This document shows positions 6,136 through 31,494 of a DNA stretch of 35,811 nt, piece by piece. Source of the DNA: Rotaria socialis (Eukaryota). Both the position numbers and the translations under genes were made by a program. The stretch lies in assembly GCA_905331485.1 (NCBI GenBank), contig CAJNYT010000045.1:4015-39825 (forward strand), given 5' to 3'. The notes under the pieces were generated by a model. That model did not search any database. It was not told the DNA's origin and saw only the letters and a list, made by a program, of their open reading frames with translations. Within the stretch, counting starts at the first letter, position 1. Each line of letters opens with the position of its first letter.

Positions 6136-7207
6136 TCGACCTGGGACTTTGCATTTCCTATGCAAGCTCGATAGTTTCATTTCTCGTTTAAACGAATTTT
6201 TTCTGACTTTCCACTCTCGAGACCATCGTTTAGAGGAAAAACAATATTTATTCCTTTTGTTCTACTCCTGCTCTCATCGACAAAAGTCATTCAAAAAAAT
6301 GATGTAGGTCAGTTAGAGAAACTCTCATTGAGTTTATTGAACGTTAATTTATTTAGGATATGAATACATTTGAATTGTTTTTCATAATAGAATCCTGTTG
6401 TTTTAATTATTGAGTCATGCATTTCTATTTTGAACAGTACTGCATGAATTCAAAAACGAAATCCAGCGCAACTAAAGAATGAATGCAATGGCAACATATG
6501 GGAGGTTAAGTTCTTATGTCACAAGTGCCCTAAAAAAACACACTTGTCTTCATGGATACTCGGTTGTGTCAATTCGCATCTGTCACCAATAAACAGAACG
6601 ATACTATTATTGGAAGAGCCAGTAGGTGGCTTTTTCCTCGTATTTTTAAGGAATTTCTAAAAGATCATCTTCTCTAGTGCAATAAATAAATATCGATATC
6701 TCTACTATTGTATCGCTAATCGCAATTTTTTTAATGTAAAAAATGTCGTATCAATATATCTTTAGGGTATCTAGTTTAATTCTTGAATTAAAAATATAGT
6801 ATATTTATTTATTCAATCGTTAAGAAGCTTTTTTTCTTCTTCAAGTGGACATCTAACGATAATTGAATTGCTTCATATTTTGAAAGTTCATCGAAACTAA
6901 CTAACGAGATGCTGAGAATTGCAGATACTAGCGGCATTAATACGATTGGTGATTTTTTAACAAATAAATAATTGCACGAGTCGCTCGCTGAAGAAACAAA
7001 ACAAACTAACTATATATCTGATACGCGATTTACAGAATAAGAAAGAAAAATACTGTTAATTCGTTTAGTTTATGACAAGACGACGTTAAACAACTACATT
7101 CTTATTCGAGATTCTTGCTATTGAATAATCTATGATCACAAATTTTTAATTTACCTTAAGAATTCGTGAAATATGAATAAAATTTCTCTATAAATCTATC
7201 GTTAATC

Positions 7208-9499: not shown

Positions 9500-10030
9500 C
9501 TTTTTGTGTACTCAAAAAGAAAAGAGTACACTATAGAATCGGACAGTGTGTCCGGCCGTCCGTTTATTCGATAACTCTTCACAATTACATTCGATTGAGC
9601 TGAAATTTTGCGCACAGAATTATCTCATCAATATCTAGGTCGAGTTCGAAGATGAGAAGGATCCGTCAAGAAATGGTTGAGTTGTCGAAAAAATTGTCAT
9701 TTTTGATCAGACCATCCCTGAGGAGGGGTACAGAGATTTTTCAAAAAAAACTTTTTTTTCTCAGAATTATCAACAACATATAAAAATCGAGTCAGTTTTT
9801 AACGCTGATGACAAATCTGATATTAGTTTTGAACTAAGCCATAGCTTTCTAACGAAACATCGCCTGAAAAACGTCTCAAAATGCACAAAAACTGCATCCA
9901 GAAATCAAATTGCCTAGTTTCTCATGATAATTTTCGTGTTCAGACATTCTAGAATGACTCATATGTCGCATGCACTTTTTGCAGTACACATAACTCTCGA
10001 ATGAAATCCGAAGTTTCCACATTTTTTTAG
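9500..10030 (+). mobile_element. Interspersed repeat family, copy 2; full length about 530 bp
   Basis: Same termini (tttttgtgtactcaaaaag... / ...ccgaagtttccacattt) and internal sequence as copies 1 and 3. The hairpin stem has diverged (gtgtactcaaaaagaaaagagtacac). Confidence 0.6.
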
Positions 10031-10567: not shown

Positions 10568-13500
10568 ATGGCTGATCCAAAAGTTACCGGTGGTATGAAT
10601 ATTTTAATTCTTTTGCATTACGATTCAATCCTCGTTGTTTTTTTTCTTCTTTGAATTTTAGTTTACCGAGTTCCTCCTTTCTACTATCTGCATGTACTTG
10701 ATCAAAATAAAAATGTAAGCCGACTTGAAGTTGGCCCACTCACATTTGTTAAACAAGATCATGAAAAAGTCCTCGTTGGGCCAGAACGCATGATAATAAT
10801 TCCGTATGTTGAAGTTGTTTTTCTTTCTTTGATTTCATTAAAAATTCTATGCATAACTAATTATCTAGTCCTCGCCATTATTGCGTCGTTGAAAATCCAG
10901 CTGTTCGTGATAAAAATGCGAAAGTTGTTATTGATTCTAATGGTCAAGTTAAGTTGTTACATTCGGATGTTGATATTCGATTTGCTCAAGAGCCATTTCC
11001 ACTCTATCCTGGTGAAATACTCAAACAAACTGTAACACCACTGAAAGTTATTGAGCCTAACTGTGCATTACGCCTTCGTGCGGTTTTGGATTTTATTGAT
11101 GAGAATGATCAACAGATACGTGCTGGAGATGAATTTCTCTTCTGTGGACCAGGTAAAACAGCAAAAAAAATATGCTAAATTTTTTAATGTTAAACATGTT
11201 CGAATAAATTTATTTCTAGGAACTTATCTGCCACGTAAAGAAGTTAGCGTTGAAGAACAAATAAAAGCTGTTATTCTGAAATCAAACGAAGCTGTTCGAT
11301 TACGTGCAAAAAAAGAGATGGTTGACCGCGATGGAATTGCACGCGAAACAGGCGAAGAATGGCTTAATCGTACTATTGGTTCATACTTACCATTAGCTTA
11401 CGAAGAAGTTGTTTCAACAGTTAAAGCCTATGTACTAACTGACAAAGTATGTGTTCTTAGGAATCAGTCGTCTTTTTTCATGATGTATTTATTTCATTGT
11501 CCTTTTTTTTCTTCCAGAAAGCTCTTCATTTACGAGCATTGGGCACATTTATTGATTCATTCAAACATAAACGTCTCAATGGAGAAGAATGGCTTGTATA
11601 TGCCTCTGATGCTGAAACATATATTCCAGATGTTTTTGAAGAGGTAGATATAATTAAATATATTTATTTCATAGATGAAAAATAATGAATAAAATATTTA
11701 GGTTGTTGGTGTTGTAGCAGTAACTGTATTAAATTCTCGTCAATACGCTGTTATTATTGATCCTGTTGGTTCAGATGGTAAACCACAACTTGGAAAGAAA
11801 AAGCTTGTTAAAGTATGCTAAATTAAAATCATATGAATTTTAAATTAAAATCTTTCGATTTTTTCTAAAGGGAGAAACAACATTCTTTCTTCAACCCGGT
11901 GAAAAATTAGCTAAAGGTATTCAGGATGTCTATGTTCTGGAAGACGATGAAGGGCTCATTCTTCGTTGTACTGAATCATTTAAAGAAGATGGAGTAAGTT
12001 AATACTTTGTGTGAAATTTTTATTTATCAATTGTATCCGATTGTTTTTATAGACGGTACTACGTAATCCCGGTGATCGTTGGATGATCCGAGGGCCCAAA
12101 GACTATATTCCAGCTGTAGAATCGGAAGTAGTACTCCGACGTAGAGCTACACCATTAGATGTCAACGAAGGTATTTATGTTCGAGATGTTAAAACTGGTA
12201 AAGTTCGATCAGTCATTGGCACTACATATTTATTGACTGAAAATGAAGAACTTTGGGAAAAAGAATTACCCGCCCAAGTTGAACTACTTCTCAATCAAGA
12301 TGCTCGATGTTTTGATGATAAATCAGCACAAAAAGCAACTATACCACCAAGAGATAAATCGAAAGTAGTTGCCTATCGAGTTCCACACAATGCTTGTGTA
12401 CAAATTTATGACTTCAAATCTAAAAAAGCACGCATTGTTTTTGGCCCTGAACTTGTTATGCTCGGGCCAGATGAGCAATTCACAATATTGAATTTATCCG
12501 GTGAAAAACCCAAAGTACCAAATAAAATTCGAGCTATTTGCCTTTTAATGGGACCCGAATTTTCAAGTGATATTGTAACAATCGAATCAAGTGATCATGC
12601 TCGTCTTTCACTCAGACTTTCATATAACTGGCATTTTGAGGTAAGAATTATAAGAGTTTACAAAGAAAAGAGAATGAAGTCTTTGTTTTTTTTTTACATT
12701 ATTTTAGGTTAATGATTGTAATGATCAAAAAGAAGTTACAAAACTTTTTTCAGTACCAGATTTTATTGGTGATTTCTGTAAAGCTGTAGCAGCTAAAATC
12801 CGTGGTACTGTTGCTGGTATTTCATTCGATGATTTTCATAAGAACTCAGCGAAAATCATTCGAACCTCAGTATTTGGTCTTGATGAAAATAAACATGTGA
12901 AAAAAAGACTAGTATTTCCACAAAATAGTTTGGTTCTGACATCGATTGATATTCAAAGTGTTGAACCAGTAGACCAACGAACACGAGATGCTCTTCAAAA
13001 GAGTGTTCAATTAGCTATTGAAGTAAGATGATAAAATACAATTGGTTGAGCTGTGATGTTTAACTTCAATCTATGTCATTTTTTAGATTACAACAAATTC
13101 ACAAGAAGCCCAAGCGAAGTATGTTTAACAAAAAATGAACTTCAAATTTTTATTTGCTTCGTTTTTCCTATAGACATTTAGCTTCACGCACAGAACAAGA
13201 AGCAAAGGGTCATTTAGAACGACAAAAAATTGCTGATGAAGCAGAAGGTAGAGTTTGATTTTATGTGAAATTGAAATTTTAAACATTTTCATTTTTATAG
13301 CTGAAAAGGAACGACGAAAATTATTAGAACTTCAAGCACTGTCATCTGCTGTTGAAACCACCGGTCAATCACGTGCTGAAGCTCAATCAAGAGCAGAAGC
13401 AGCTAAAATCGAAGGTGCAGCTGCCGTTGATCAAGGTATGTCTCATATTGAACATCTGTATCGATATAGATATTATATGTTGTCTTTTCTGTTTTTCAGC

Positions 13501-13907
13501 TACACTTCGTGCACAAGCGTCAAAGATTGAATCTGATGCTGAACTTATACGTTTAACACAAGCACGTCAACTTGAATTACATTATTCAACATCGACGACT
13601 AATTTAGAAATTGAAAAAGCAAAACGACTAGCCGACATTGAAATTTCCGAATTCAAAGAGCATGTTGCTGCTATCGGTCCAAAAACTATTCAAGCTATTG
13701 CTACTAGCGGACTCGATAATCAAGTAAGATTTTATCTTAATAAGAATTCATGCTACACTTTACTAACTGCTTGATTTTTTTCTCATTATTCAGGTTAAAC
13801 TTCTCCAAGCTCTTGGTATTAAGTCAACTTTGATCACTGACGGACGCAGTCCAATTAATCTTTTCAATACTGCCGTTGATTTAGTTGGCGCACCACAAAG
13901 ACAATAA
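10568..13907 (+). CDS. MVP: Major vault protein, copy 1 (14 exons, 839 aa)
   Basis: Exons: 10568-10592, 10662-10803, 10869-11152, 11220-11446, 11518-11643, 11702-11812, 11871-11993, 12053-12640, 12708-13022, 13087-13118, 13174-13247, 13301-13435, 13500-13723, 13794-13907 (stop TAA). Exon lengths sum to 2520 nt with phases consistent. All junctions are GT-AG. Product [66 protein letters not shown]...[45 protein letters not shown]...[40 protein letters not shown]...[61 protein letters not shown]...[22 protein letters not shown] aligns across its length to MVP (vault repeat domains, shoulder, cap-helix). Confidence 0.9.
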
Positions 13908-15007
13908 AACGATTGAGAACAAATCAATCAAGAAAAAACAAAAACTCATAAAATTTGAATTTCTATGTCCAGTTTTAGACACAAGACATTAGTCAGATTC
14001 TTAAAATAAAAACACATGTTTTTTTGTAAGAAGGACAGAACATTGTTTTATACTTATTATTTTTAATATATGTATGTGACCTCAGAATATAGCTTTTTCC
14101 ATTCGAAAAATAAAATAATTTAATAAAATTTGGTATATATATATATATGTTAATTTTATTGAAGTAATTGAGAAAGTTGAGTATGATACATAAAAAAAAT
14201 GATATTCTACCTGAAATGAAATCATTTTCAACGCTAACACAAACGCAAAGGCTCGATTGATTCTAGGGAAATATGAGTTTGGGAAATGCGAATGAATCAG
14301 ATTCGATTTAATTTAGTATTCACCAAAACATTTAGCTTCTATTCAAATGATATTTTAAATGTACTAAACAAAACAAAACACATTTGGGAAGAGTAAATCT
14401 TAAGAGGGCGATTTCTCAAGTGTGACTAAGCCAATGCAACGAACATTCTAACAAAAGATAAGCTCCGACGAGCCTCCGAAAATTGTCCCCCAACTACTAA
14501 TAACTTTGCTGAGTGGATCTTTATTTCAAGTGAAGTATTTGTAAATTAATGGAAGTATGAGATTTTCATCTATGTTTTCTGCCGACGACTCAACAAATCA
14601 CGAAAGTCGCTCTTACACTCTTAGGTTGTTTTTTCGAACTGAAATACGAAATTTCAATTTAAAATAAATTCACGTATCGCAATGAATTTTCGAGGTATTC
14701 ACAAGCCATAAAATAAAAACATCGAAATTGTCAAGGTGAAGTAAAGAAATGCATCGCCATGGGGTGCCTATTTTTGACGCACCTTTTAATACATTTGAAA
14801 AGAGCTAGGAAGTAGATAATAAATAGGCAGTGAAAAAATTGTTTCTTATGATGATCATCACAGTTTATTATTCATACATGAACTACACAATAAGTAGAGT
14901 GCACTTATATAGTTAAATTATTAATACGAAAACAAGAAGGGACGGACAAAAATTATTGTTTTTCGTCAACAAAAAGCAAGTTTTATCTAATAATTTTCTT
15001 CAATGCA

Positions 15008-18000
15008 TTAATTAGGTGCTCCACCCGCATTACTAATTGTATTTGCATTTAAACCACCTAAAAGTCCTTGTCCAAAACCCATTAGATTGATAGGTGAATG
15101 GCCATCAGTAACCAACATGGACTGAAGACCGAGGGCTTGCAAAAGTTTAACTTGTGTATCTGGACCTGAAGTTGCAATGGCTTGTATTGTTGATGCACCG
15201 ATTGATTCAATTTGTAATTTGAATTTGTCGGTTTCAATACGTGACATTTCAGCTTTTTTAGTAATTTCTAATTCATTCTGTTCACGTAAATAGTTAATTT
15301 CAGCTTCTCGTGCCAATTTTAAACGTGATATTTCAGCTTCGGCTTCAATTCGCGCAGCGTCAGCCCTGAGACGAGCTAAACAAATGAAAATTCATTTGTT
15401 CAATTGCATTGGAGAAATAAAATAAAATATCTATACCTTGTTCAACAGACGCTCGTCCTTCAATGAGAGCAGATTCGGCTCGACTTTGTGCTTCGGCTTT
15501 AGCTTGACCTGTGACTTCAACAGCCGATGATTCAGCTTGTAACAGGAGAAGTTGTTTTCGAACCTCTTCAGCTTCAGCATCATCTTTAATACGTTGACGT
15601 TCTAGTAAACCTTTTGCTTCTTGTTCTCGACGCGAAGCTTCATGCTTAGCAGCAGCTTCTTGTGAATTTGTTGTAATCTAAAATGCAGACATACACGAAA
15701 ATTAATCACCACAATTCAATCGATTGTCTTTTATCTTACTTCAATGGCTAATTGAACACTCTTCTGAAGAGCATCTCGCGTTCGTTGATCAACTGGTTCA
15801 ACACTTTGAATATCAATCGATGTAATGACAAGATTGTTTTGTGGAAAAATAAAGTTATCTCGTATTTTTTGATTTGCATCAAGACCAAATACAGACGTAC
15901 GAATAATTTGAGCTGAATTCTTATGAAAATCATCAAATTGTGTACCAGCAACAGCACCACGAACACGTGAAGCTATAGCTTTAGCTGCATCACCAACAAA
16001 ATCTGGTACAGAAAAAAGTTTGGATGCTTCTTTGTCGTCATCAATATCTGATATTTCAAAATGCCAATTGTATGAAAGTTGAAGTGAAAGACGAGCATGA
16101 TCAGCTGTTTCAATAACAATCACATCAGTAAAAAAATCTGGTCCAAGAAGTAAGCAAAGTGTTTGAATTTGATTTGGTTTTTTTGGTACACTGCCACTCA
16201 ATGAAAGTAATGTAAAATGCTCATCGGGTCCAAGCATAACAAGTTCAGGGCCAAATATAATACGTGCTTTCTTAGCTTTATAATCATAAATTTGTACAGC
16301 GGCATTGTGTGGTACACGATAGGTAACTAGTTTTGATTTGTCACGTTTGGCAGCATTTACGTTTGAACTTGTTGCTGTTGTTGCTGCTTGTTGTTGAGAT
16401 TGATTTTTATCTGATGTTTGACTTCGTGTGAGAACATTTCGTTCACTTAAAGCATCACGAGACAATAGTTCTTCAACTTTCTTAGGTAATTCTTTTTGCC
16501 ATAATTCTTCATCTTGTGTTAACATATAAGTTTCACCAATGACGGCGCGGACACAACCAGTTTTGATATCACGAACATAGATACCTTCATTGGCATCCAA
16601 TGGCAAAGCTTTTCGACGTGTAACAACTTCAACTTGTGTTGGAGGAATATATTCACTAAAATTCACAAGAATAATATTAATTTAGACCTTTCATAGAGAC
16701 ATTAAATATCTTACGTTGGACCACGAATCATCCAACGATCACCGGGATTTCGATTAACATTAGCTTGCGTATCTTTAAATGCTTCAATACATTTTAGAAT
16801 AACACCTTCATCTTCACCTAAGATAAACACATCTTGAATACCATTTTGAAGTTTTTCACCGGGTTGAAGAAAGAATGATTTTTCACCGACAACAAGTTTC
16901 TACGAAAGAAAACAAAATCAACATAATTAATCGCTCTGATTTCATTGAGATAAAAAACTTGCTTTTTTCCCTAATTGTGGTTTTCCATCAGCAACTGGAT
17001 CGATTATAACACAATATTGACGTGATGTCAATGTTACTACATTAACAACAGAAACTAATTGTTCATAGACACTAAGAATGTGTGTTTCAGTGTCAGCAAG
17101 TGTTACAAGCCATTCTTCACCATTCATACGTTCTTTACCGAATTCATCGGTAAAAGTTTTTAATGCACAAAGATGAAGAGCTTTTTTATCGGTTAATACA
17201 TAAGCATTTTCTACTGAAACCACAGTTTCCTAAAATTAACAAGATTTGAATTTCGCATACCGACGAGATTTTGCACTTACATATGCAAGTGGTAAATATG
17301 CACCGGTCTTTTTAATTAACCACTCTTCACCAGTAACACGCCGTTGGCCTGTACGATCAACGATTTCTTTTTTTGCGCAAAGCCTTATAGCTTGATTAGA
17401 CGAGATAACTGTAGCACGAATTTGTTCTTCAACGCTAACTTCTTTACGAGGAATATAAGTAGCTGGCCCTTCAAATAACCATTCATCTCCAGCCCGACGT
17501 TGTTCGCCTGCTGTTTCATCTTGAAAATCTAGGACAGCTTTTAAGCGTAACGCTGAATTAGCAGGAACAACTTTTAATGGAGTAACAGGCTTTAAAATAT
17601 AAAAAGTAGTTTTGTTTTATTCTCAATAGAAAATGTTTAGTGTTTTTTTTTATACTTGACGAAGAATTTCACCGGGATAGAGAGGAAAAGGTGATTGATC
17701 AGGTTGTGAAAGACGAATTTCCAAGTCAGCATGAACAAGTTTCGCTTGTCCATTGCTATCGAAAATAACTGCGCCAGCATCATTGCGTACTACAGGTGAT
17801 TCAATAACACAGTAATGACGGGGCCTAAAAACACATCCAAATTTTCACTTTCTTTCAGCGTCTTTTCTTAGATTAACAATTATAAACGTACGGTACTGTA
17901 ATCATTTTTTCTGGTCCGATGGTGACTGTTTCATTGTCTTGTTTAATAAATGTTTTGGGACCAATTTCAAGTCTCGTAACATTTGTATTTTGATCCAAAA

Positions 18001-18079
18001 CATGAATATAATAATAAGGAGGAATTCGATAAAGTGGACCAGAATCACTTTTCTTATCCATAGTTGTTGCTTTACTCAT
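15008..18079 (-). CDS. MVP: Major vault protein, copy 2 (8 exons, 881 aa), convergent with copy 1
   Basis: Exons (minus strand, 5-prime to 3-prime): 18079-17892, 17824-17656, 17589-17281, 17229-16963, 16899-16715, 16655-15740, 15680-15437, 15375-15008 (stop TAA). Lengths sum to 2646 nt, phase-consistent. Product [78 protein letters not shown]...[58 protein letters not shown]...[24 protein letters not shown] is about 65-70% identical to copy 1. A 28-aa low-complexity insertion ([28 protein letters not shown]) falls in the variable loop. Intron 4 uses a GC donor (aaaaaa|GCAAGT...tttcgtag|aaactt). An upstream in-frame TTG-initiated extension shown in the ORF track is not a real start. Confidence 0.88.
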
Positions 18080-18149
18080 TGTGTATGTGTTTGTAGAATG
18101 TTCGTATGTCAGTAACAATCTATAGTCAAGAAAAAAAAACGTTGATTCT

Positions 18150-18160
18150 CTTTTATAAAC
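18150..18160 (-). promoter_or_regulatory. TATA box (minus strand TTTATAAAAG) about 75 bp upstream of the MVP-2 ATG
   Basis: Plus-strand ttttataaac at about 18151-18160. Position relative to the ATG at 18079. Confidence 0.3.
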
Positions 18161-18919
18161 TCAAAATATAAAGACTATGGTATTGCATGTTGAATGATTA
18201 AGTATTTTTCAAAGCATTGTGCAAGTTTGCCCCATGTCAGAGAAAGGAAGAAAAGAAAAACAAATATCGCGGTAAAATCTATATTTCACTCTCTTTTACA
18301 TCTTGGTGTTCTTGCACAAGTTTTTATTTTTTCAAGCTTTTTGTTTTCAAGGCTATTTGCAGTGCAGAAATAGGCAAATATTTTGGAGGTTTAATTCAGC
18401 AGTGAATAGAATTGCGTTTGAAAAAGAAACCTCAGAATTACTCATTCTGATAAATTACCTAGAAATTACACCGAAATGAGAAACGAAGCAAATTTCAACC
18501 AAATATGCAACCGACAAAAACAAAAATTTATCAGTTTTACTTTCATAGATCAATCCAGAAGTGATTCTGAAAAATGTAGAGTATGACGTTTTTTTTACCA
18601 GAAGGTAGTAGTGTTGTAAAGAATTTGTTTTTAACCGAGCATTGCAAGCAAACTGCTGAAAGATAAATGGGGCATTTGCTTTTAAAGAAACAAAAAAGGT
18701 CATTCGTGGAAAATTTATCACAGATTATTTCAAACTGATGTAACTGTGATCATATTGAATGAAGATTCAAATCAATCGTAGTGCCACATCATTTTACAGT
18801 TTTTCTCAATCTACGCATTTTATATATACAGTTGAGAATGATGCAAAAGAATTCTGAGCACAACAGATAAATAATTTTACAATAAGGATATTAAATGATG
18901 CATTGTCATACTAATGAGG

Positions 18920-19100
18920 TTTTGCTGTATATTGACAATGTTACTTGATCGTAGATACAAAATTGATCGTCGCTGTCGACTGCATCACATCCTAAGAACA
19001 TCAATAGAAATCTTGTCTTCGATGGAATCACATTCCCAATGGAAAGATGTGCATGCAGATGTTTATTACTTCCGCACACTCAAGACGACGAATATCTTTC
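18920..19100 (-). pseudogene. Truncated third copy of the 3-prime end of the pentapeptide-repeat gene (duplication remnant)
   Basis: acttgatcgtagatacaaaattgatcgtcgctgtcgactgcatcacatcc...atcaatagaaatcttgtcttcgatggaatcac is homologous to 20540-20650 (gene A tail) and 24305-24420 (gene B tail). No upstream remainder of the gene is present. Confidence 0.4.
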
Positions 19101-20715
19101 GAACTCGCTATCAACTTTTATGTTTATCTCAACTATCAACTCTGTCTCTCAATTACATTTGAGCTTGAAAAGAGGGTATCAGTGTGAATTGTTCTTATGT
19201 TGTTTGTCGTTGTAATATAACAATGGCGAGAAAATATAGTTTTCAAAAACTTCATATCGTTGCAAGAACGAGTAGTAGCACTTAAAAACAAGTCAAAGAA
19301 ACAAGATAGACGAATAGTATTTGGCTTGAGTATATGACTTCGTGATTTAAAATACAATAGAAAATATTATGCAAACAGACCGAGATTTCATCATATTTTT
19401 ATCGGGTTATTAAAGAAAAAGGTCATATAATGTCACTTTTCTTAGCTGACACAAGATAGTACCTCTTAGTTGTCTGCTTGCCAATTCTCTGTTGAGTTGA
19501 TTACTCTTTATCGTTAGCCTATGTGAAAATAAATCTATAATCATATGTCTATGCACGTTATAATACACGTGTGAATAAATTGACATTGTTTTCAGAACAA
19601 TGCCCCAATTTTCTACTTGGTGTATCAATGTGACTACCTGATTACTATTGGGTTATATTCTTCGAAGCTACATCACCAAGAGAACAAACAGCAATGACCT
19701 CTCTACCGATGCCAATAGATGATTCTCCGAGATTGGTTTACATTTTCAGTATGGTTTCTATTATTATCTTCCTACTGATTATCGTCTGCTATATCTCAAT
19801 CGTTAGAGAGTGCTTAGAAGCAACACCTAGAAGAACACTGCCGACACCTCGATACTTTCAAATAGATGAGTATCCACAATTGGTCAACTCCTATGCTGAG
19901 CAACCCCTCGGTCAACCCGTGGAATTCTAACGCCATCAGATATCACCCATAATCGATCTCAACCAATATCAACAATGAATTTCGAAAACTTAAACTATAC
20001 CGATAATATTATTCAGTTTATTGGTTGACAACTTTATTGAAATAGTTTATTTCTTGGCAAGGATATATGTTGCTGATAAATGGGTGCCTAATATTGCTCT
20101 TTATACGAATGCTCCAATAACCGACTTCTGTCTTATGTTGTTCCACTTTTTGGTTAACTAGTGCACTAGTCTCTCCTTAATATGAAGAAGCTAAAAGCAG
20201 GCTCTTTAATTAAATGTTTCTTTCCTGATTGCTTTTAATCATAATCCAAACCTTATGCGATTGCAACCTATTTTCAGAGTGGTACACATCAAATAATTCG
20301 ATTGAGCATTTAATGCGTGAGAATGGCATGTATATTCTCCGGTTAATGTCAACATTTTCTCAAAAATTGCCAGGATGAGTTTACATATTTCGATAAAGAC
20401 AACTTCTTTCTGCAGATACAATTCAATTGTTATTGTTTTCAAAAATATGTTATACATAAAATTGACATATTCGTGTCGTAATGCGTATTTACCAAAAAAA
20501 ATCCTTTATCATCTTTACGAGATCTTTCTAAAAACTGATAATGTTATTTGATCAAAGAGACAAAATTGGTCGTTGCTACCAACTGTATTACATCCCAGCG
20601 ATACTGCTATAAATCTTGTCGTTGGTGGGATCATATTAACAAGTGAATGTTGATGGAATGACGATGTCAAATTTTTCATATGAACTTAAAATACAAGCAC
20701 AATAACAATAGTGAA

Positions 20716-22057
20716 TCATGAAAGCCCTACCGGCAACGACTTACTAAATACTGAACTTCCAAAACCAAATGAATTTTTATTTTGTGAAAAATGTACTGTC
20801 ATCGTTAACGAATCTTTGTCATTTGGATTTTTCAATCCGAACCATCCAAATAAATTGAACATAGCTAGTTTTAAATCGATCAAACGAGAGAAGTTTTGAA
20901 CGGACAAAAGTTGATAGTAGGTCATGTCTTTATCTATTTTGAAAAAGCAATCGTCTTCGACTTTAGACATATTCACTGGTACGTTTGTTTGAAAATGAAT
21001 AATATTTAGTGGTTCATTAGTGATGACACCATTCCAATGTGGCGTTACATTGAGATGACACTACAAAAAAACGAAATGAAAAACACTCCACAACGGGATA
21101 TATGACAAAACTAACTTCTGGCTCTGCTCGACCATGCATAAGCAAATTCTGTGAATCGATAATACTGAACGTGCCATCCGGTAAGCGAGTATTGAGCAAA
21201 ATTACTGGCTTCAAGCCGAGAAAGGGTGGTGGATTCAATAAGGAATTTCCAATAACACTTTGATACAAATCAACATTTGTGAAATCTACATTCTGATAAA
21301 CTCCATCACCAATGAATGATTGACGAAGATCAGCGCTCGTGAACTTTGCTTCATACATTTGGTTGTCACGAAATTTTGCCTTATTCAAATTGGCATTCTG
21401 AAAATTCGCAAGCGCAAGATTGTTCAACAGAAAGTTAGAACCAACCATTGACGCACTCTCAAACACTGCATATGTGAGAGTACAACCATCGAATATGACA
21501 TTTTCTGCGATGACTCCAGGCAAATAAAGAAAGGAAAGATCACAGACTTGTGTCGAAGATTGCACAAGCTTCATTCCACTAAAATCCGCCCCACGTATAT
21601 CAATTTTCGGTGTGATATCGTGTCGAATCAGACGACTTTCATACAAAAAAAGAAACACATCACGCTTACGGGTAGGGTCAAGATTTCTTAGGACCGTTAA
21701 TGTTTGAACGCGAATTTGCAGAAGAGACTTGTTAATATTTTGTTCAAAATTTTCATCTAAAAGAAGATCTCTCATATCATCCATATACTCTTTGAAGAGA
21801 ATCCTTCGATTCGTTTCATCGGCTTGTCTTTGATCTTGGTCACGTGTCGCCCTAGCCGCAGCATCTTGTTGTAACGTGAAGACAATCGTAAACACTCCAA
21901 AAACAATAGTTGGCAATGCAGCAAGTGTAAGCTTGAATATATTCATACATTTAATTGGCTTTGATTTCTTACGAGTCACCACATCAGATGACGTTTGTGC
22001 CGCAGATGATGACACGATTGAATTTCCTCGTGTGAAATCAAATGAACTGTTATCCAT
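20716..22057 (-). CDS. Pentapeptide-repeat single-pass membrane protein, tandem copy A (2 exons, 428 aa; C-terminal tail lost to stop)
   Basis: Exon 1 22057-21116, exon 2 21060-20716. The 55-bp intron has donor gaa|GTTAGT and acceptor tttttttgtag|tgtcat. The reading frame continues across the intron, and the exon 2 frame is conserved codon-for-codon with copy B. Product: about 45-aa N-terminal tail, hydrophobic helix LTLAALPTIVFGVFTIVFTL, a juxtamembrane charged segment, then about 24 consecutive pentapeptide repeats (ADFSG MKLVQ ... ANFQN ANLNK AKFRD NQMYE AKFTS ADLRQ ... VDFTN VDLYQ), then CHLNVTPHW...IIHFQTNVPVNMSKVEDDCFFKIDKD...FGLKNPNDKDSL...SKSLPVGLS*. The downstream 195 bp (20520-20715) still aligns in frame with copy B's C-terminal extension but carries TGA and TAA codons. 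Confidence 0.75.
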
Positions 22058-23379
22058 AGTTTGTTGAAAGATGAGAGCACGAAAAATTTCACGTATTATA
22101 ATAAATTCAAGGTTGATAGTATCTAAAATCTATATTGTGTTGTGATTCGTTCGAACATACAAAAAAAGTAAAAAGAACCAGTTATTTATACCTGTGTGGG
22201 AAGCTTTATATTAACATAATAGGCATTCGCAGCAAATTGAGTTTGACGGATGTCTATGATATCCTCTGAATCTGACCTCATCGTCAATTGTAACGTTTTC
22301 TATCACGAACTATATATTCCGAATGACGTACCTTTCACAATAGTTTTTCATAGAGTAGTCATTGTATCGATAGATAAAACAAAACAATCTCTCGACTGAT
22401 CTAACAGCTTTGTAGAATGAGAAAAAACATCTTCTATCATTGGCCAAAAGCGATCTTTTGAAAAATGTCAATTTATTAGCATAATTCACAAGATCAGTGT
22501 TGAGTGGCTAATGACATTTCTATTGAAAGTAAATGAATTCAATGTGTTAGTCAAAATATCAAGATATATTGTAGAAAAAAAAGTAGAACATCATCTAATA
22601 CATTGGATTAACATTTTTCTTTGTCATAAAAGTCGAAATTTCAATTGCATCTGATTAAAACTACCTGCTGTGACAATACGAAACCAGGCTTTGTGCTCTT
22701 CTGATGAGTAGTATGGATACGATGAAATATTTTCTGATTTCGACACAAACATTCTGCTAACAGTTACTTTTCGGACATCTGAGAATCCTTGGATTATTTG
22801 ATAATCTTCTCTCATGAACTAGGGAAAAGTCTACTGATGCCAATGCAATAGTAGCGATTGTTACAGTCATATTATTAGTCAACCCAATATTCTTTGCAAT
22901 TATGTCTACTTTTCGTATCTTGAAATTCAACAAATGGGTAGTGCACAGCAATTATTCAAATTGTATATTCTTCGAATAGCTGTTGGCAGTTAGAGACCTG
23001 CAGGTTGTAGATAAGTGTTCTGTTCTGCCCTAGTAGTACAGGGTAGATTGTAGGGTATAACTATTTTAATCTGCCAACCTGTAATTAACCTAATGTATTC
23101 CGTATTGTTGGTGTCTCGTCAGACCTATTCAGTAGGAAATGTTTGGAAGCCTGTAGCCTAGCTCACCATTGATTGAGATCGGTCTCGGTCACGGTGCATA
23201 AAACCAGATGTGCCGCTACTATATACTTTATACATCTATCTACTAAGTTTTCCACATAGTTTAGTTTCTTAGTTGACCACTTTATTAAGATGATTTATTT
23301 CTGGACGAAAAAGTCCTTTGCTCATAAATGGGTACCTAATATTGCTATTTTTAGTCTTCTCCTATAACTGACGGCTGCC

Positions 23380-23913
23380 TTTTTGTGTACTCAAAAAGTG
23401 AGTACACTCTAGAATCGGCCAGTGTGTACATCCGGCCGGCCGGTCGTAGGCACGATAACTTTCGAAAGGAGAGTCAGATCGTGATAAAATTTTCCATACA
23501 GTTCAATCGCATGAATATCTCGACCGAGTTCGAAGATGAGAAGGATCCTTCAAGAAATGGTTGAGTTATCGAAAAAATTGACATTTTTGACCATACCATC
23601 CCTGAGGAGAGGTACAGGGATTCTTTTCAAAAAACAAATTTTTCCCAGAATTATTCACAACATATACAAATCGACTCAGTTTTTAACGCTGATTTCGAAT
23701 CTGATATTAGTTTTGAACTAAATCGTAGCTTTCTAACGAAACATCGCCTGAAAGCCGTCTCAAAATGCACAAAAACTGCATCCAGAAATCAAATTGTCTA
23801 GTTTCTCATGATAAATTTGGTGTTCAGACATTTATTCTAGAATGACTCATATGTCTCATGCACTTTTTGCAGTACACATAACTCTCGGATGAACTCCGAA
23901 GTTTCCACATTTA
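23380..23913 (+). mobile_element. Interspersed repeat family, copy 3 (about 534 bp); an insertion present in duplication unit 2 only
   Basis: The flanks cctataactgacggctgcc | ... | ttctgttctactttttgtccagccgatgcac are contiguous in the paralogous unit 1 sequence (ccaataaccgacttctgtc ttatgttgttccactttttggttaactagtgcac at about 20110-20160). The element is therefore a post-duplication insertion. Same termini as copies 1 and 2. Confidence 0.7.
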
Positions 23914-24279
23914 TTCTGTTCTACTTTTTGTCCAGCCGATGCACTATTTTTTCATTGTTATCAAAAGACTAAACATATGTTTTTTAATGAAATATTTCTT
24001 TCATAATTGCTTTTAATCATTAACCAAAGCTTAGATGGTTATAATTTTTATCGTGGATTAGCTTTTATATGTGTACTTGGAGAATAGCCGCCAGCCTATT
24101 CGTTCATCAATGTGAAAATTTTGTTTTCAACAATTGTGAGTAAGATCATATGACGTTTCGAGTTCGTAGCTACATTTCACAGAACTATAATATCTATGAA
24201 GGCATCGTCGTGTTGAGAACACACAGTAATTTTTTTATTTTTTTCAAAAACATTGTATACATAAGATTCATTGTAATAT

Positions 24280-25818
24280 CTACAAGGTCTTTCTATAAAT
24301 TGATAATTTCACTTGATCGAATAGACAAAATTGATCGTTACTACTAGACACAATACACGCCAGCAATAGCACTATAAATTTTGTCTTCTCCGGAATGATA
24401 TTGACAAGAGAAAGTCGCTGGAACGATGTCAAATTCTTTATAACCACTTGAAATACAAGCAGAATAAATACAGTGAATAGTGAAAACTCGGTCGATAATG
24501 ACTTACTAAATATTGAACTTGCAACATCAATTGAATTTCTGTTCGGTGAAAAATGTATAGTCGCCAATAAGGAATCCATGTCATTTGGATTTTTCAATCC
24601 AAACCATGCTGATAAATTGAACATGGCTAATTTAAGATCAATCATATGAGAGAAGTTTTGAACAGATATGTGTTGGTAACTGGTCAGATCTTTATCAATT
24701 ATAAAGAAACAGGCGTCTCCGACTTGAGACACGTTCGCTGGTACATTTGCTTGAAAATGAATAATTTTCATTGGGTCATTGTTCTTTACATCTCTCCAAT
24801 GTGACGTGAAATTGAGATGGCACTAGAAGAAGCGCAATGAAAAATATTCTAAAACGCAATATTCTGTAAAACTAACTTCCGTCTCAGCTTGATCACTCAA
24901 AATCAAATTTTGCGAATTGATATTACTGAACGAGCCGTTCGGTATACGAGTATTCATCAAAATATTTGGCTTAAAGCCGAGATACACTATTGGATTCAAT
25001 AATTCATCTCCAATGATACATTGATATAGATCTACATTAGTTAAATCCATATTTTGAACAACGCCACCATGAATGATTGATTGAACGAGATAGGCACCGG
25101 TAAACTGCGTTTGATAAAGCTGATCGTCGTGAAATTGAGCTTTAGTAAGATTGGTATTTTGAAAATTAGCACGTAATAGATCACTCAAAATAAATTAAGA
25201 GCCAGCCATCGATGAATTCTCAAATACGGCGTCTATGAGAGTACAACCATCGAATGTGGTATTTTCGAGGTACACTCCGGGTAAATGAAGAAAGGGAAAT
25301 TCGCATGACTGTGTTGATGTTTGTATGAGTTTCATTCCACTAAAATCTGCCCCACGTATATCAATATTTGGTGTGTGATCGTGTCGAATTAAACGGCTTT
25401 CATACAGAAAAATAAAAACATCCCGTTTACGAGCCCGATCAAGATACATCAAAACGGTCAATGTTTGTACTCGAATCTGTAATAGAGACTTGTTGATATT
25501 TTGTTCGAAATTTTCATCTAAAAGAAGATCTCTCATATCATCCATATACTCTTTGAAGAGAATCCTTCGATTCGTTTCATCGGCTTGTCTTTGATCTTGG
25601 TCACGTGTCGCCCTAGCCGCAGCATCTTGTTGTAACGTGAAGACAATCGTAAACACTCCAAAAACAATAGTTGGCAATGCAGCAAGTGCAAGCTTGAATA
25701 TATTCATACATTTAATTGACTTTGTTTTCTTACGAGTCACCACATCAGATGACGTTTGTCCCACAGATGATGACACGATTGAATGTTCTCGTTTGAAATC
25801 AATTGCATTTTTGCCCAT
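24280..25818 (-). pseudogene. Pentapeptide-repeat single-pass membrane protein, tandem copy B; in-frame TAA inside the repeat domain (probable pseudogene or needs sequence verification)
   Basis: Exon 1 25818-24877 (942 nt, same length as copy A exon 1), 54-bp intron (gaa|GTTAGT ... ttcttctag|tgccat), exon 2 24822-24280. TAA at 25195-25197 replaces the AAC codon of copy A (MAGS* versus MVGSN) in the same frame with no frameshift. Exon 2 extends about 65 codons beyond copy A's stop and encodes a second hydrophobic segment FSLFTVFILLVFQVVI. The N-terminal 60-residue TM region is nucleotide-identical to copy A. Confidence 0.7.
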
Positions 25819-26689
25819 GATTCTTTGAATGATAAAGACACTAAAAAAATCTGAGAAATCAAAATCAAAATCGATATTATCTAAAAGCAATATTGCAGAA
25901 AAACTTCTCTGAAAAATTAATTAACACTTTCTATCTAAAAATATGCATTCGTCTAGCTAAATCGCACCTCTCTATTTAGTATTTCAATATCATGGGAGTC
26001 GTTCTGACAACTTCTTAGATAGACTTCTTGTAATGTGAAGAAAACGCCGAATAATAACAATTAAAATTATCGTATCACCGATGATCTCATGAAAAATGTT
26101 AATATAGTGGCATTATTAATAAGGTGAATATTGACGTGCTAGTCGTACTTGTATTCAAAGCAAATAAACTCGATATATCAGTGGCGATATCAAGTTAAAA
26201 CCTACAAAACAGTATCCCAATATCATTGAATACATTAGATTAGCATTTTTCTTTTTCATAATAGTCGCGATTTCAATTGTGTTAGATTGAAACTACTAGT
26301 TATCAAAATACAAAGGTACACTTAGTGTTTTTCGTATGAATCATATTTGCATTATGAAACATTCTGTGACGTCGACATTAATATTCTACCCACAGTTGAT
26401 TTCCATACATCTGACAATCGCTAGATTGTTTGATACTGTTTTCTAATAAAAAAAACTTTATTAGATAGACTATGTGGTCAAGTAATATAGAATGACTATC
26501 ACATGTTCGATAATTACCTATCTCAAGTTAAAATATACTCATTTAAATTCATGAGGTTGTCCAGCGAGTAAGATATATGTATGGCTATCACTGTCGAATC
26601 CGCCCGCATCCACTCCCCGTTTATCATTACTCTATCACCGATCGAAACAAAGTGATCAATCATGCAACACTGTAATTTGAAAAAACGTC

Positions 26690-26900
26690 TAGATTTTTAT
26701 TTTCAAATATGCCTTAGACGACGAAAAGGAAGAACCACACACCAACAATTGCACACATATGAACAAAATTTATAGACACAACGAAAACAAAAAAGAAATC
26801 GCCAGATTGAACAAATACAATACACACACATATACGACAAAACAAAAAAAGAAGAATATTTCATACGTTTTTCGTGATCTGGTTTCTAAATAGACAATCA
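26690..26900. repeat. A/C-rich low-complexity tract (CA/ACA-rich)
   Basis: cacacaccaacaattgcacacatatgaacaaaatttatagacacaacgaaaacaaaaaagaaatcgcc...acacacacatatacgacaaaacaaaaaaag. Intergenic, between the SUN gene 3-prime end and the upstream side of the pentapeptide copy B promoter. Confidence 0.5.
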
Positions 26901-27062
26901 TACAAGAAACAAACTAAGCGTATTTTTATTATATGTTTTACAAACAAAAACAAAGGTTAATTATACAAAAACATCAAAACGACTTATTCAATATGAACAA
27001 TCGATATGATGGAATCATAGTTAAGTCTTTTTCGGAAAAAGAAAACAATAGCGCAATTATCT

Positions 27063-29739
27063 TTAAACAGCTGTTGGCGTGACACTTTGCATGTCGCCAT
27101 GAACTCGAAATCTGTACAAACATGTATAAGCTGGATTACCCCAATTTGATGTTATTTGTACTTCAATATATTCAACAACGGGTACATTAGCAATCTAAAA
27201 TAGAATAGAATTAGTTATATTGAAAAAAAAAACATATAAACGTCACATACTTGAGGTTTAAATCTTTGAAGTGCCGCACCATTTTCAGCATCATAATTAT
27301 ATCGACCAAGAACAGTACCTTCCTTATCATTTTTATCTTTCAAAGCCTAACAAAAACAAACAGACACAAAGAATATTATTCTTATAATAAAAGATTAAAT
27401 TTTCTTTTCATTTACATAAACTGTAAAATTATTTGGTGCACTATTTGTATGTCCAACGATAGAAATACTTTTCGATAGATGTTCAAGTACGAATTCAGTT
27501 GGTATAACAGGTACAGCCAATCGAATAACTACACTTCCATGATTACCTTTAAATGGAAAACATTGACCAGGCATACGTCCATGCTAGAAGATAAATTTTA
27601 TTTAAAAATTCAAACAAAAAAATTCAAGAACAAACTTTAATGATTATATCTGGTTGTTTTGACATATGAACAATAGGAATGCCAAGAAATTTCACAACTT
27701 TTTGTTGAGGTTCATCTGTATATTCTTCACAACGTGTATCAACAACTTTTCCTCCTAGAAACAAAAACGATGATGATAGCTTTCATTACTCTTTTCAATC
27801 TATTTACCATTAGCTTCTAATGCATAATCAGCTTGTCCAGTTTCATCAGCTGAATATTCTTCGATTAATTTTCGAGCCAACTAGAACAAAAATTTTTATT
27901 TAAAAAAATATTGATTTTCCTTAAGATTTAATTTACTTGAATGAATTCTCTTTCTTGATCAGGTTTTAAAGCATGTCGTCTAGAAAACAGCAGAAAATTT
28001 GTATTTTTTTGTTAGTACCTTCGATTAAACTTACGTTCCAACAACTTTCTCACGTTCTTGTTTAAGTTCTTCGATAAGTTTATTGACTTTTTGTAGGCCG
28101 GCTTCATAATATTCCTTAGCATTATCAGTTGTTGTTTCAACAACACCAACAACACGATTTTTAACACCACGAAACGAGCCTAGTAATTTGTTTTTCGTCG
28201 AAGAGCAAAAATTGCTTAACGATTTTAATACAGAATTTTTAACATTTATTGTTGAACGATAAACTTTTTGAAGCTTTAGAAGGCCAAGATTATATGTACG
28301 AAAACGAGTAAAATCAGTAGTATGTTGAATATTTTGACAAATGGTATTCACTTTTGAATTTCGATTATTTGCAAATGGTTTACAAGCCAAATAAGGTACT
28401 AAAAAAAATAGATATAAATAGATTAATAAGAATATAAATAATTGACCTACATGCATAAACAGTAAGTAAAATAATAAGTGGTATAAGTATCCACCATGGT
28501 AAAACTTTGAATTTGTTCCAAACTGTATCAAAAATATCGATAGGTAAATGGAAAGCTTTTTTTAAGCAACAAACAGTTGTTTTACAGCAATTCCTTAAAT
28601 GTTTACAGCTACCATCATCGTGATGATCTTTTCGGTGTTTTGTTGCTTTACGTTGTTGATGTTGTTGTTCACTCTCATTATCGTGTGGTGTTGAATGAAC
28701 TGGACGTGAACGAAGATTATAGCCTGTTGCTCGACTACCTGATGCTGATGATTGAGATGATGTACGAATAAATCTTGTACCACCGATTGTCCCTTCACTT
28801 GTTGGTGAATCTGGTGTTGATGCTTGTTGATGACCACCAGTAAGTTGACATACACGATCGCAAACAGCACCATAGCCATTGGCTAATTGTGATCGAACGG
28901 TACAAAATAGATGACACGGTAATGAGAGTAATGATGCTGTACGATTTTGATCTTCATTATGTAAACTACGACGAGCCATGACGGGAATCTCGTATGTAGT
29001 TGTTTGTAATGTAGGTGCATAGGCATTGCTAGAGAGAATAATAAACAATGGATTTAATTTGTCTTAAAAATCGATTCGCTACGATATGAATTATTCGTAA
29101 ATAGCTTTCATCTATTCGATCTTGATCGTTCGAAGCCTCCTACTGAGATTGACATTTTAGAAGAGAAGCGAATAAATAATTATGTTATATATAATCTACA
29201 TCGTAGCGAAAGTTGTAATAGAAATTTTCATTTTACTCTACACTTCCGGTAGAGCACATCTGCTTAGGGAATATCAGATAAAGTTGATTAATACAGTAGT
29301 GCATGTATGTGCATCCGGTTGAAGAAGCTTATAATCACCCTTACTAATCAATAACAATAGGCTCAAATAATAAGTACAATATCTGACGACTACTCAACAA
29401 TCAATGGATTTGATTTCCTCTATTTTAAATACTCACCTATGAGCATATGTATAACTTGTCGATTGGAGATCACTGGAATAAAAAAAAGTAAAAAATTTTG
29501 ATAAAAATTTAATTGAGGCAAATATTTTACTGAGTAGGTGATTTAGTACTTTCGAGTACTTCTTGTACGCTTCGATTAGCAGCAGCCGATGCCATTCGAC
29601 GAGTTACTACTGAATCAGTTCGTGCTTCGGTTTCAATATACATTGGTCGGCGAGTTGTTGTCGACGAACTCGTAGTTGTTGTTCTATTCGATGATGATCG
29701 AACTTCAGTTATATCATCATCGGTGAGTGTATCAGTCAT
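27063..29739 (-). CDS. SUN-domain (Sad1/UNC-84) inner-nuclear-membrane protein, 9 exons, 593 aa
   Basis: Exons (minus): 29739-29531, 29028-28451, 28398-28035, 27979-27937, 27880-27808, 27754-27636, 27583-27416, 27346-27251, 27194-27063 (stop TAA at 27063-27065). Lengths sum to 1782 nt, phase-consistent. Donors include gtaaaat, gtaggt, gtaagt, gtaaat, gtttgt, gtatgt. Product: S/T-rich N-terminus (MTDTLTDDDITEVRSSSNRTTTTSSS...), TM helix VLPWWILIPLIILLTVYALPYL, a coiled-coil-like region, then a C-terminal SUN domain ...DYALEANGGKVVDTRCEEYTDEPQQKVVKFLGIPIVHMSKQPDIIIKHGRMPGQCFPFKGNHGSVVIRLAVPVIPTEFVLEHLSKSISIVGHTNSAPNNFTVYALKDKNDKEGTVLGRYNYDAENGAALQRFKPQIANVPVVEYIEVQITSNWGNPAYTCLYRFRVHGDMQ. This matches the conserved blocks of SUN1/SUN2/UNC-84 (GxCWxFxG, TLEHIPK, SSAPKDFAVYG, NWGHPEYTCLYRFRVHG). 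The ORF track's M at 29048 and at 29748 are TTG codons; the true starts are the ATG at 29739, with a first splice joining exon 1 to the acceptor at 29029. Confidence 0.85.
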
Positions 29740-31494
29740 TGTGTTCAACTTTTTTATTTTTTTTCTATGTTTATTTAAACAAATCTATAAGATTTAACAA
29801 AAAGAAAAAACGAATTAACGTCTCATGTTGAACTTCTTTCCTTGTTGTTTCCTCTTTCTGTTCATATACATGCAGCTATGTGTTAGCGTCGGTGAACGAT
29901 ATGAACAAAGAACGACCGTTTTGCTCAAGAGAAGAAACAGACGGAAAAGAAGAACCAATATCCTTCTCTCTTTCTTCCTTACGCGTACATGACCATCTAT
30001 CTCTATCTCGTTGACCATCCATCGAACATAGTGAGGGATTGTACAGACACATGCACAACACATTAAAAAAAAAGGAGAAACGAAAGAAATTGCTAAGTCA
30101 CATTGAAGTCATTCGTTTCACCAAATCGAATTTTTTTTTCTCATTCGAAGTAAAAAAAACTAACTTGATGATAAATCATCGAGGTTAGACAGATAACATT
30201 TTCATCTGCAGTATGTCAAATAAAAAGGTTATGATCAAAGATAAATAATATGAATGAAAAAAAGCTTGATCAGTAGCTAAAAAAGAACTCCGAAGGAAAT
30301 CAAACTGTCTTAGATTAATAACGTCCTTGGGATTAGTTCAAAAGGAATGGATTCTATGAATAAATTTCTCAGAGAATAAAATATGAGATATTGATTTCTG
30401 CACTTTGAGTGGATCAAAGGATTACTTCAGATAGAAAAAAAGATATTTACGAATGCAATCACCTCTTCCGTTTCGTTTTACATATTTGAGTAATACAAAG
30501 ACATGCCTTCTCTTTCCTGTGGCAAACAACTTGTTTCTTTGCTTAATAGACTACCTGTTTCATGTTACCAGAGTTCATCATGATGGCCAATAGAAGACAT
30601 TTAGATGATACGCTTCTACTGATCGTATCTGATTTTTTTACCTTGATAAGATCGAATAACTATGCTCTGTAAAAAAATATTTAAAATAAATTGTTTCGTA
30701 TGGCTACTTCATTTTCAAATAATTAGAATAATTTCGATGAATCGATTTCCGGAAAATAAGCATTAGTTTGGCATCTGTTTTACTAGTTATGATAGATAGG
30801 TTTAACCGAATCGAACAGCGGAAATGTGTGAAAAATAGATTTGATTCGATTAACTGTCTCCTAGGATCGATGATATGTACAGAGGAAAAAAAAGATTCTA
30901 ATACTATTGGCTTACCGTTTAAAATCTTTATTAAACAAGCAAAAAAAAGAGAGTTGCAACATTCTCTGTCATGTATTGTGACAGCATCTTGTACTATGGA
31001 CGCAACGAAACATCAATTATACGTTGCATTTACGCATAAAATTTAATTGTGTGAATTCACATGTGTCACATAAAGAGTAGTATGCATAAAAGTGAGTGAT
31101 GTTGATAGATACGAAAAAGAAAATATTGTGTAATATTGAGACCATGATTACCGAAACAACTTTTCTCTTCTCTCGTACTAACTTTGAGTCAACCAAGTGA
31201 ACTAACATAGATTGACCTCTACAGACAATTTCTTGGTGTCAGTAAGTGTAAATTGATCGATTTCTCTTTCGCATATGCCACCAAGAACAGATAGACAAAG
31301 AACGTTTCGACCAATCAGACGTGAGTTCTTTGTTTCTGTTCTGTCAAGTATGTCACTTACCAAGATATTTCTTGCAAAATCGATGATGTGATGTGTTGAG
31401 ATCAATGAACAATATTTTCTAGTCTTTCATCAACTCATTAATGTGCATTGATTTTACTGACAACTAGCGACATCAATGCCAGATAATTTCACCA

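Follow-up and report, generated by a model that had tools for sequence, protein, structure and literature searches.

Tandem pentapeptide-repeat genes in the bdelloid Rotaria socialis: a probable ancient bacterial acquisition extended by a bdelloid-only domain

Two tandem paralogous genes, here called copy A and copy B, lie within a 35,811-nucleotide stretch of the bdelloid rotifer Rotaria socialis (contig CAJNYT010000045.1, positions 4,015 to 39,825 of the forward strand; the whole stretch is the window in what follows, and positions are counted from its first letter), and both encode proteins with pentapeptide repeats. The reading that best accommodates them overall, and a reasonably probable one, is that a bacterial gene was acquired in an ancient transfer, domesticated, extended and duplicated, and that its product is a type II, lectin-like protein of the cell surface or of the lumen of the secretory pathway. 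Judged from architecture and distribution, a bacterial origin of the family is well supported.

When the reverse complement is read and exons are joined, each gene has three exons on the minus strand, and the two proteins are 70% identical. The spliced copy A model, of 475 residues, was found by exact-sequence look-up to be, residue for residue, the deposited protein CAF3314226.1 (UniRef100_A0A817T8Q5), which bears the name "Pentapeptide repeat-containing protein". A preliminary description of the locus, made from the sequence alone, had picked out the tandem pair, the repeats, the transmembrane helix and an intron with a GTTAGT donor. All of these stand, and splicing of that intron yields the deposited protein. 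The gene extents do not stand, for intron 2 and exon 3 were overlooked: a stop codon inside intron 2 caused copy A to be ended at 20716, its true end being 20515. In copy B the in-frame TAA at codon 208 was passed over, and the ‘second hydrophobic segment’ attributed to this copy comes from reading through its 60-bp intron 2 in frame (FSLFTVFILLVFQVV). Nor are the proteins ‘built almost entirely’ of repeats, which take up about 130–150 of the 475 residues, some 30% of the protein. Both introns have counterparts at equal positions and phases in a chromosome-level assembly of Adineta vaga (protein P0006). Intron 1 sits about 20 residues past the tetrapeptide LPDG (residues 292–295) and beyond the point at which the bacterial homologues described below end.

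Protein architecture and predicted placement

A 37-residue N-terminal tail precedes the lone strongly hydrophobic segment, residues 38–60, which is the single transmembrane helix already recognised. A helical stalk follows, and then the repeats. For the latter, both copies exceed the gathering thresholds of the two Pfam hidden Markov models by which the preliminary description had proposed they be checked: Pentapeptide_4 (PF13599; 58.4 and 61.9 bits, E 7.5e-16 and 6.2e-17, cut-off 38) and Pentapeptide (PF00805; 49.6 and 43.7 bits, E 2.7e-13 and 1.9e-11, cut-off 20.2). Membership of the pentapeptide superfamily, taken as at least 8 contiguous repeats with a family-model score above threshold, extends to both. 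In each copy one register of residues 151–300 has L, F, I, M or V at 24 of its 30 positions, against 5–11 in the other four, so that the hydrophobic residue noted earlier at every fifth position is borne out, with about 26 repeats in place of the about 24 first counted. The periodicity is not an artefact of composition: a count of 24 never arose in 200,000 shuffles, and a hypergeometric test gives, after correction, a P of about 2e-7. AlphaFold2 (AF2) models the repeat region as a beta-helix at a predicted local distance difference test score (pLDDT) of 94–98, and Foldseek matches the modelled repeats to HetL, QnrB1, MfpA, AlbG, Rfr23 and NleL (E 5e-6 to 2e-4). The repeat domain is predicted, on these models and scores, to have the beta-helix fold of pentapeptide proteins.

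The non-repeat C-terminal domain, of about 160 residues, is encoded by exons 2 and 3. An exhaustive phmmer search with the last 181 residues of the Rotaria magnacalcarata orthologue, against 1.84 billion cluster representatives, gave 25 matches. One of these is a spurious leucine-rich-repeat protein; the others are exon-sized fragments or full proteins of the same architecture, and every family match with a named source is bdelloid (R. socialis, Rotaria sp. Silwood1 and Adineta steineri). From an 18-sequence alignment, AF2 models the domain as a beta-sandwich with a core pLDDT of 75–94 (72–87 for this domain in the full-length model). FBA and CBM-type jelly-rolls have the same beta-sandwich fold as that predicted, and both methods place sugar-binding modules, those of FBXO2, FBXO6 and CBM16, at the head of the structural matches. 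Sequence comparison of the domain with the PDB gave nothing meaningful at E up to 10, and a Pfam scan found no F-box in the proteins of copies A and B. The modelled domain appears to be lectin-like, resembling the sugar-binding domain of FBXO2/Fbs1 and CBM16.

As to placement in the cell, Lys or Arg occupies 5 of the 15 positions just before the transmembrane helix, and the segment after it is net acidic. Cys172, Cys192 and Cys315 are conserved throughout the aligned rotifer proteins, and Cys352, Cys451 and Cys461 match conserved cysteines in the alignment of the C-terminal domain; the two cysteines of the repeat region are absent from the aligned bacterial relatives. The predicted N-glycosylation sites N318 and N424 are also conserved. 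The protein is probably a type II single-pass membrane protein, lectin-like, of the cell surface or the secretory pathway. Its short basic N-terminal tail would face the cytosol, and the stalk, a rigid beta-helix rod and the distal beta-sandwich would face the cell exterior or the lumen of the secretory pathway, the side that would also carry the six family-conserved cysteines and the conserved glycosylation sites. Stalk and beta-helix would hold the lectin-like module away from the membrane, with the pentapeptide helix serving as a stiff spacer or as a second binding face. Because the distal domain resembles sugar-binding modules, the role suggested by its predicted fold is most likely that of a membrane-tethered lectin-like receptor or adhesin.

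Bacterial relatives and the alternative readings

Searched against 5.8 billion proteins, copy A has 38 close relatives, and all the named ones are from Rotaria or Adineta. Close relatives from metagenomes end at the position of intron 1, as is expected of a prokaryotic gene caller applied to a eukaryotic gene. The next matches after the bdelloid ones are bacterial pentapeptide proteins, the first being from Dictyobacter aurantiacus (E 2.4e-10). No eukaryote other than bdelloids was among the matches either in this search or in that of the 1.84 billion representatives. The family does not belong to a named metazoan one, a possibility that the preliminary description had left for checking; in the databases its members go by no names but ‘unnamed protein product’ and the automatically assigned ‘Pentapeptide repeat-containing protein’.

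The likeness to bacterial proteins extends to the stalk, which is not repetitive. Copy A has the bacterial-type motifs KEYMDDM..LLL and R.QTLTVL..LD..RKRDV..FLYESRLI, and in the alignment the rotifer stalk reads FTLQQD...KEYMDDMRDLLL...RVQTLTVLRNLDPTRKRDVFLFLYESRLI where that of the bacterial-type protein P0100 reads ...QAYLDQMSQLL...RARTLTVLTRLDPTRKSSVLRFLYESRLI. Over stalk and repeats together, BLASTP aligns the rotifer protein with P0100 at 32% identity (E 2e-15). With the stalk alone, a word-index search retrieved only 5 rotifer fragments; a stalk profile with bacterial sequences among its members retrieved chiefly rotifer fragments and a few bacterial-type proteins such as P0100, and against the PDB it gave only insignificant matches to Hsp90 and Rop. 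When prokaryotes were scanned at one genome per species, Leptolyngbya and other cyanobacteria proved to have the same architecture (an N-terminal transmembrane helix, then the conserved stalk motifs, and a terminal (M/L)PDG), with tblastn matches in four cyanobacterial genomes. The bacterial homologues stop shortly past ‘MPDG’, the rotifer equivalent of which is ‘LPDG’.

The history that these observations suggest would begin with the ancient transfer of a bacterial gene for a membrane-anchored pentapeptide-repeat protein, comprising transmembrane helix, stalk, quadrilateral beta-helix and ‘MPDG’ end cap. The transfer would have preceded the divergence of Adineta and Rotaria. The gene would then have gained two spliceosomal introns, as well as two 3′ exons encoding the bdelloid-only beta-sandwich of about 160 residues, and the family would later have multiplied, partly into tandem arrays. 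Presence of the gene in both Adineta and Rotaria marks it as ancient, and the introns shared with A. vaga in position and phase place acquisition, intron gain and 3′ extension all before the Adineta–Rotaria split. The features commonly sought in a foreign gene of a metazoan genome are found here, as judged from search matches, gene neighbours and gene structure: the best outside matches are non-metazoan, no other metazoan homologue was found, the linkage is metazoan and there are introns. The two descriptions first offered as alternatives, a domesticated horizontal acquisition and a lineage-specific family, both hold, given the introns, the metazoan neighbours, the restriction of the family to bdelloids and the bacterial affinity of its nearest outsiders. 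Acquisition of bacterial genes in ancient times is abundant in bdelloids and is a hallmark of the group (PMC4632278). A literature search brought up no description of a pentapeptide family in bdelloids; the two subjects are mentioned together only in connection with an unrelated astacin-domain gene of A. vaga.

Several points weigh against this history and against the lectin-like role. The bacterial relatives are only 23–32% identical, and any statement of the donor or the direction of transfer is tentative at that distance. The best bacterial full-length score is a modest 58 bits, so that the case for transfer leans on the shared architecture and on the lack of matches in other eukaryotes. 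None of the 18 aligned C-terminal sequences matches a Pfam family at E up to 10, neither FBA nor any CBM; the likeness is one of fold only, at 10–16% identity and on a predicted structure, and the jelly-roll, galactose-binding-like class also holds protein binders, among them MAM, the ephrin-receptor ligand-binding domain and reelin. The linker, residues 301–331, is poorly modelled by AF2, and the orientation is derived from the positive-inside rule, the cysteines and the glycosylation sites only.

With the evolutionary history unchanged, the distal beta-sandwich may instead bind proteins, after the manner of MAM or the ephrin-receptor ligand-binding domain, or the pentapeptide helix itself may be the functional surface, as it is in SV2. 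This is a tenable, if rather unlikely, alternative. The luminal pentapeptide domain of SV2 is a known animal example of the fold and a documented protein receptor, that for botulinum neurotoxin A, which binds it edge-on (PMC8145042). The Pfam model of that domain (PF23894) gives weak matches here, of 16–24 bits. However, these are under its cut-off (16.4 and 21.1 bits against 29) and the rotifer protein has a single transmembrane helix, not the 12 of an MFS transporter. It is also sugar-binding modules that lead the structural matches by both methods.

An origin other than by transfer is improbable. On such a reading an old eukaryotic pentapeptide family, inherited vertically, would survive only in bdelloids, and its bacterial likeness would be due to retention or convergence. 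About 14% of PF00805 sequences are indeed eukaryotic (13.7%, with 84.7% bacterial; PMC8145042), and the present genes look fully eukaryotic in their introns, in the metazoan genes that flank them and in an AT-rich composition like that of their neighbours. However, protein searches on the scale given above would then have missed every eukaryote outside the bdelloids. The stalk, moreover, is a non-repeat region that low-complexity repeats do not mimic, and it matches bacterial proteins specifically; the known plenty of ancient bacterial acquisitions in bdelloids (PMC4632278) also tells against vertical inheritance.

A different reading, in terms of function, has the proteins as cytoplasmic DNA mimics that regulate topoisomerases, as Qnr and MfpA do. 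It can claim the same fold class and the Foldseek matches to QnrB1, MfpA and AlbG, but is very improbable. The NCBIfam models for Qnr, MfpA and HetL stand at 21–30 bits against cut-offs of 240–460 (penta_rpt_Qnr 28.9 against 240), and the MfpA model of that collection does not match the rotifer protein. Assignment to the Qnr/MfpA/AlbG group calls for a match to a curated model and a soluble cytoplasmic protein of about 180–220 residues, whereas the rotifer protein has 475 residues and a transmembrane anchor. That N-terminal anchor would put the repeats outside the cytosol, a location which the conserved cysteines and glycosylation sites also indicate, and the net charge of the repeat domain is just −3, unlike that of DNA-mimicking pentapeptide proteins. 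Bacterial contamination or a chimeric assembly, which the bacterial affinity of the closest non-rotifer relatives might bring to mind, is scarcely credible and is refuted by introns and synteny: two GT–AG introns break the frame and are kept in the chromosome-level A. vaga assembly, the locus has the same metazoan neighbours in at least four R. socialis and three R. magnacalcarata assemblies, and its GC content of 33–39% is like that of the rest of the window.

The tandem locus, its alleles and its neighbours

On this haplotype a single-base change (AAA to TAA) turns codon 208 of copy B into a stop, giving a nonsense allele of a gene that is functional in the species. Three other R. socialis assemblies, 99.6% identical, have AAA at this codon and encode an intact 474-residue protein (P0127, P0138), which makes the TAA specific to an allele and not the mark of a dead gene. 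The truncated product of 207 residues has been deposited from the same contig (CAF3314248.1). Removal of the stop by splicing was considered and rejected: the window interval equal to a 42-nt ‘intron’ annotated in R. magnacalcarata ends in TG and the nearest AG shifts the frame, so that no canonical in-frame splice rescues copy B. In two assemblies of R. magnacalcarata itself, copy B (L001, L010) has an in-frame TAG some 630 nt past the ATG, at a codon three further downstream than the R. socialis TAA; the deposited annotations P0003 and P0004 mask it with ‘introns’ of 42 nt and 90 nt, the former of which is GT..AG. A pseudogene common to the two species was also considered, and is rejected for R. 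socialis in view of the intact AAA alleles; the stop in R. magnacalcarata is a different one. That two independent nonsense mutations should fall within four codons is an odd coincidence, expected by chance at about 1–2%.

Orthologues of R. socialis and R. magnacalcarata were compared for the ratio of nonsynonymous to synonymous substitution rates (dN/dS) by the Nei–Gojobori method. For copy A the ratio is 0.36 over the whole gene and 0.08 in the stalk; for copy B it is 0.51 over the whole gene and 0.79 downstream of the stop. By this measure copy A, which is intact, is shown to be constrained by purifying selection, and copy B is relaxed. Between copies A and B dS is about 0.55–0.66, against 0.11–0.15 between the species, which dates the duplication to before the species split. 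The first 62 codons (21872–22057 and 25633–25818, minus strand) are an exception, with a dS between the copies of 0.02 where the remainder of the genes has 0.6–0.8, which points to recent gene conversion between the paralogues at their 5′ ends.

The array was once larger. About 1.5 kb downstream of copy A lies what is left of a third, decayed copy, an exon-3 relic that ends in a stop codon. Upstream of the relic nothing matching exon 1 or exon 2 was found; its presence shows that there were once at least three copies. Two more members of the family stand in tandem, at 1144–2214 and 6001–6918, on a metagenomic contig that is apparently of rotifer origin (L008), and tandem arrays seem from this to be typical of the family. 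The positions of the features of the locus are collected in Table 1.

Table 1. Positions in the window of the parts of the two genes, of the copy B stop and of the exon-3 relic
Feature	Positions	Strand	Basis or remark
Copy A exon 1, codons 1–314: cytosolic tail, transmembrane helix, stalk, pentapeptide beta-helix, ‘LPDG’ cap (tail placement predicted)	21116..22057	-	spliced product = CAF3314226.1
Copy A transmembrane helix, signal anchor (predicted), residues 38–60	21878..21946	-	hydropathy; AF2 unbroken helix 38–100
Copy A helical stalk and N-cap, residues 61–150	21608..21877	-	alignments; BLASTP against P0100
Copy A pentapeptide beta-helix (predicted), residues 151–300, about 26 in-register repeats, about 6.5 coils	21158..21607	-	Pfam, periodicity, AF2, Foldseek
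Copy A intron 1, 55 bp, GTTAGT...TAG, phase 0	21061..21115	-	position and phase matched in A. vaga P0006
Copy A exon 2, bulk of C-terminal beta-sandwich (predicted)	20745..21060	-	
Copy A intron 2, 60 bp, GTAAGT...AAG, phase 1	20685..20744	-	kept in A. vaga; required for deposited protein
Copy A exon 3, final strands of C-terminal domain (predicted)	20515..20684; stop 20515-20517	-	
Copy B exon 1	24877..25818	-	exon joining; alignment with copy A
Copy B in-frame TAA, codon 208	25195-25197	-	AAA (Lys) in three other R. socialis assemblies
Copy B intron 1, 54 bp, GTTAGT...TAG	24823..24876	-	
Copy B exon 2	24507..24822	-	
Copy B intron 2, 60 bp, GTAAGT..AG, phase 1, in frame, stop-free	24447..24506	-	missing from intact copy B proteins P0127, P0138
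Copy B exon 3	24280..24446; stop 24280-24282	-	total copy B = 474 codons
Exon-3 relic of third decayed tandem copy, stop-terminated	18915..19058	-	tblastn E ~1e-11; 52% identical to copy A residues 429–475

The gene order from SUN to MVP recurs in other R. socialis assemblies and in R. magnacalcarata. The three other R. socialis assemblies, over the 13.5 kb in which they are 99.6% identical, have a SUN-domain gene, copy B, a 2.2-kb spacer and copy A; a major vault protein (MVP) gene follows copy A here and in R. magnacalcarata. The gene upstream of copy B (26623–31492, minus strand) is of the Sad1/UNC (SUN-domain) type by orthology with R. magnacalcarata and the other R. socialis assemblies; the window's open reading frame 28380–29048, taken alone, has no Pfam match. 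There are two oppositely oriented MVP genes. That on the minus strand (14292–18298) is the orthologue of a vault gene of 855 codons in R. magnacalcarata, at 95% nucleotide identity. That on the plus strand (11051–13774) is diverged and possibly fragmentary, with 81% nucleotide identity over 370 bp and partial matches to Vault_3, Vault_4 and MVP_shoulder. A dispersed repeat of about 530 bp occurs at 23379–23915, in the spacer downstream of copy B, and in the same orientation at 9500–10027, with 85% identity; in R. magnacalcarata the region corresponding to 23379–23915 is followed by an element of the long interspersed nuclear element (LINE) type (RVT_1 / Exo_endo_phos_2). Three further open reading frames of 133–154 codons lie at 554–2365 on the minus strand, and the two that were scanned (554–955 and 1320–1781) have no Pfam match.

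Significance and comparison with known systems

Taken together, the genes appear to be an uncharacterised variant in which a bacterial membrane-anchored pentapeptide gene was domesticated and fused to a bdelloid-only domain. A bolder proposal, tentative and somewhat doubtful as it stands, is that a new class of cell-surface receptor arose in bdelloids when a lectin-like domain, either invented in the lineage or diverged beyond tracing, was joined to the acquired membrane-anchored beta-helix, with intron 1 as the seam; the resulting multigene family, partly tandem and with nonsense alleles that still segregate, would serve fast-evolving recognition of microbes, fungal pathogens or food. If the history of transfer and extension proposed above holds, the family would be a clean case of an animal having given a bacterial gene introns, a new 3′ domain and a family expansion, it would inform how foreign genes become integrated, and the proteins would be among the few animal pentapeptide beta-helices outside the cytosol, besides SV2. 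The rotifer family also gives a way in to the function of bacterial membrane-anchored pentapeptide proteins, many of which are uncharacterised. The advance is an incremental one: bdelloids are well known for horizontal transfer, pentapeptide proteins are equally familiar, and the sequences had already been deposited.

Among known systems the nearest are bacterial. The uncharacterised proteins of Dictyobacter aurantiacus (P0039), Leptolyngbya sp. PCC 7375 (locus L004) and metagenomes (P0041 and P0100) have transmembrane helix, stalk, beta-helix and (M/L)PDG as in rotifers, and the stalk motifs Y(L/I/M)D.(M/I)..L(L/F)L and R..TL..L..LD..RK..V..FLYES.LI are common to both. The bacterial membrane-anchored proteins differ, at 23–32% identity to the rotifer ones, in having neither introns nor the C-terminal beta-sandwich, and their repeats are more canonical, of the A[DN]LSG type (Pfam Pentapeptide E 1e-33 to 1e-56). 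Horizontally acquired genes of bdelloids in general are likewise flanked by metazoan genes, gain introns, are shared by Adineta and Rotaria and are under purifying selection (PMC4632278); the pentapeptide gene departs from them in its extension with a novel bdelloid-only domain and in its expansion into a partly tandem multigene family. With regard to the distal domain, the modules compared, namely the FBA domains of FBXO2/Fbs1 and FBXO6/Fbs2 and the bacterial CBM16, CBM4, CBM22 and CBM61, are 10–16% identical to it; FBA domains are cytosolic, whereas the rotifer domain is predicted to be extracytoplasmic and is without an F-box. The luminal domain of SV2A, SV2B and SV2C is, like the rotifer repeats, an animal pentapeptide beta-helix in a luminal or extracellular position and probably glycosylated, the rotifer side of this comparison being predicted (PMC8145042). 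However, the SV2 domain is a loop in a 12-helix transporter and has neither stalk nor distal beta-sandwich, whereas the rotifer protein is single-pass, and the two would have had independent origins.

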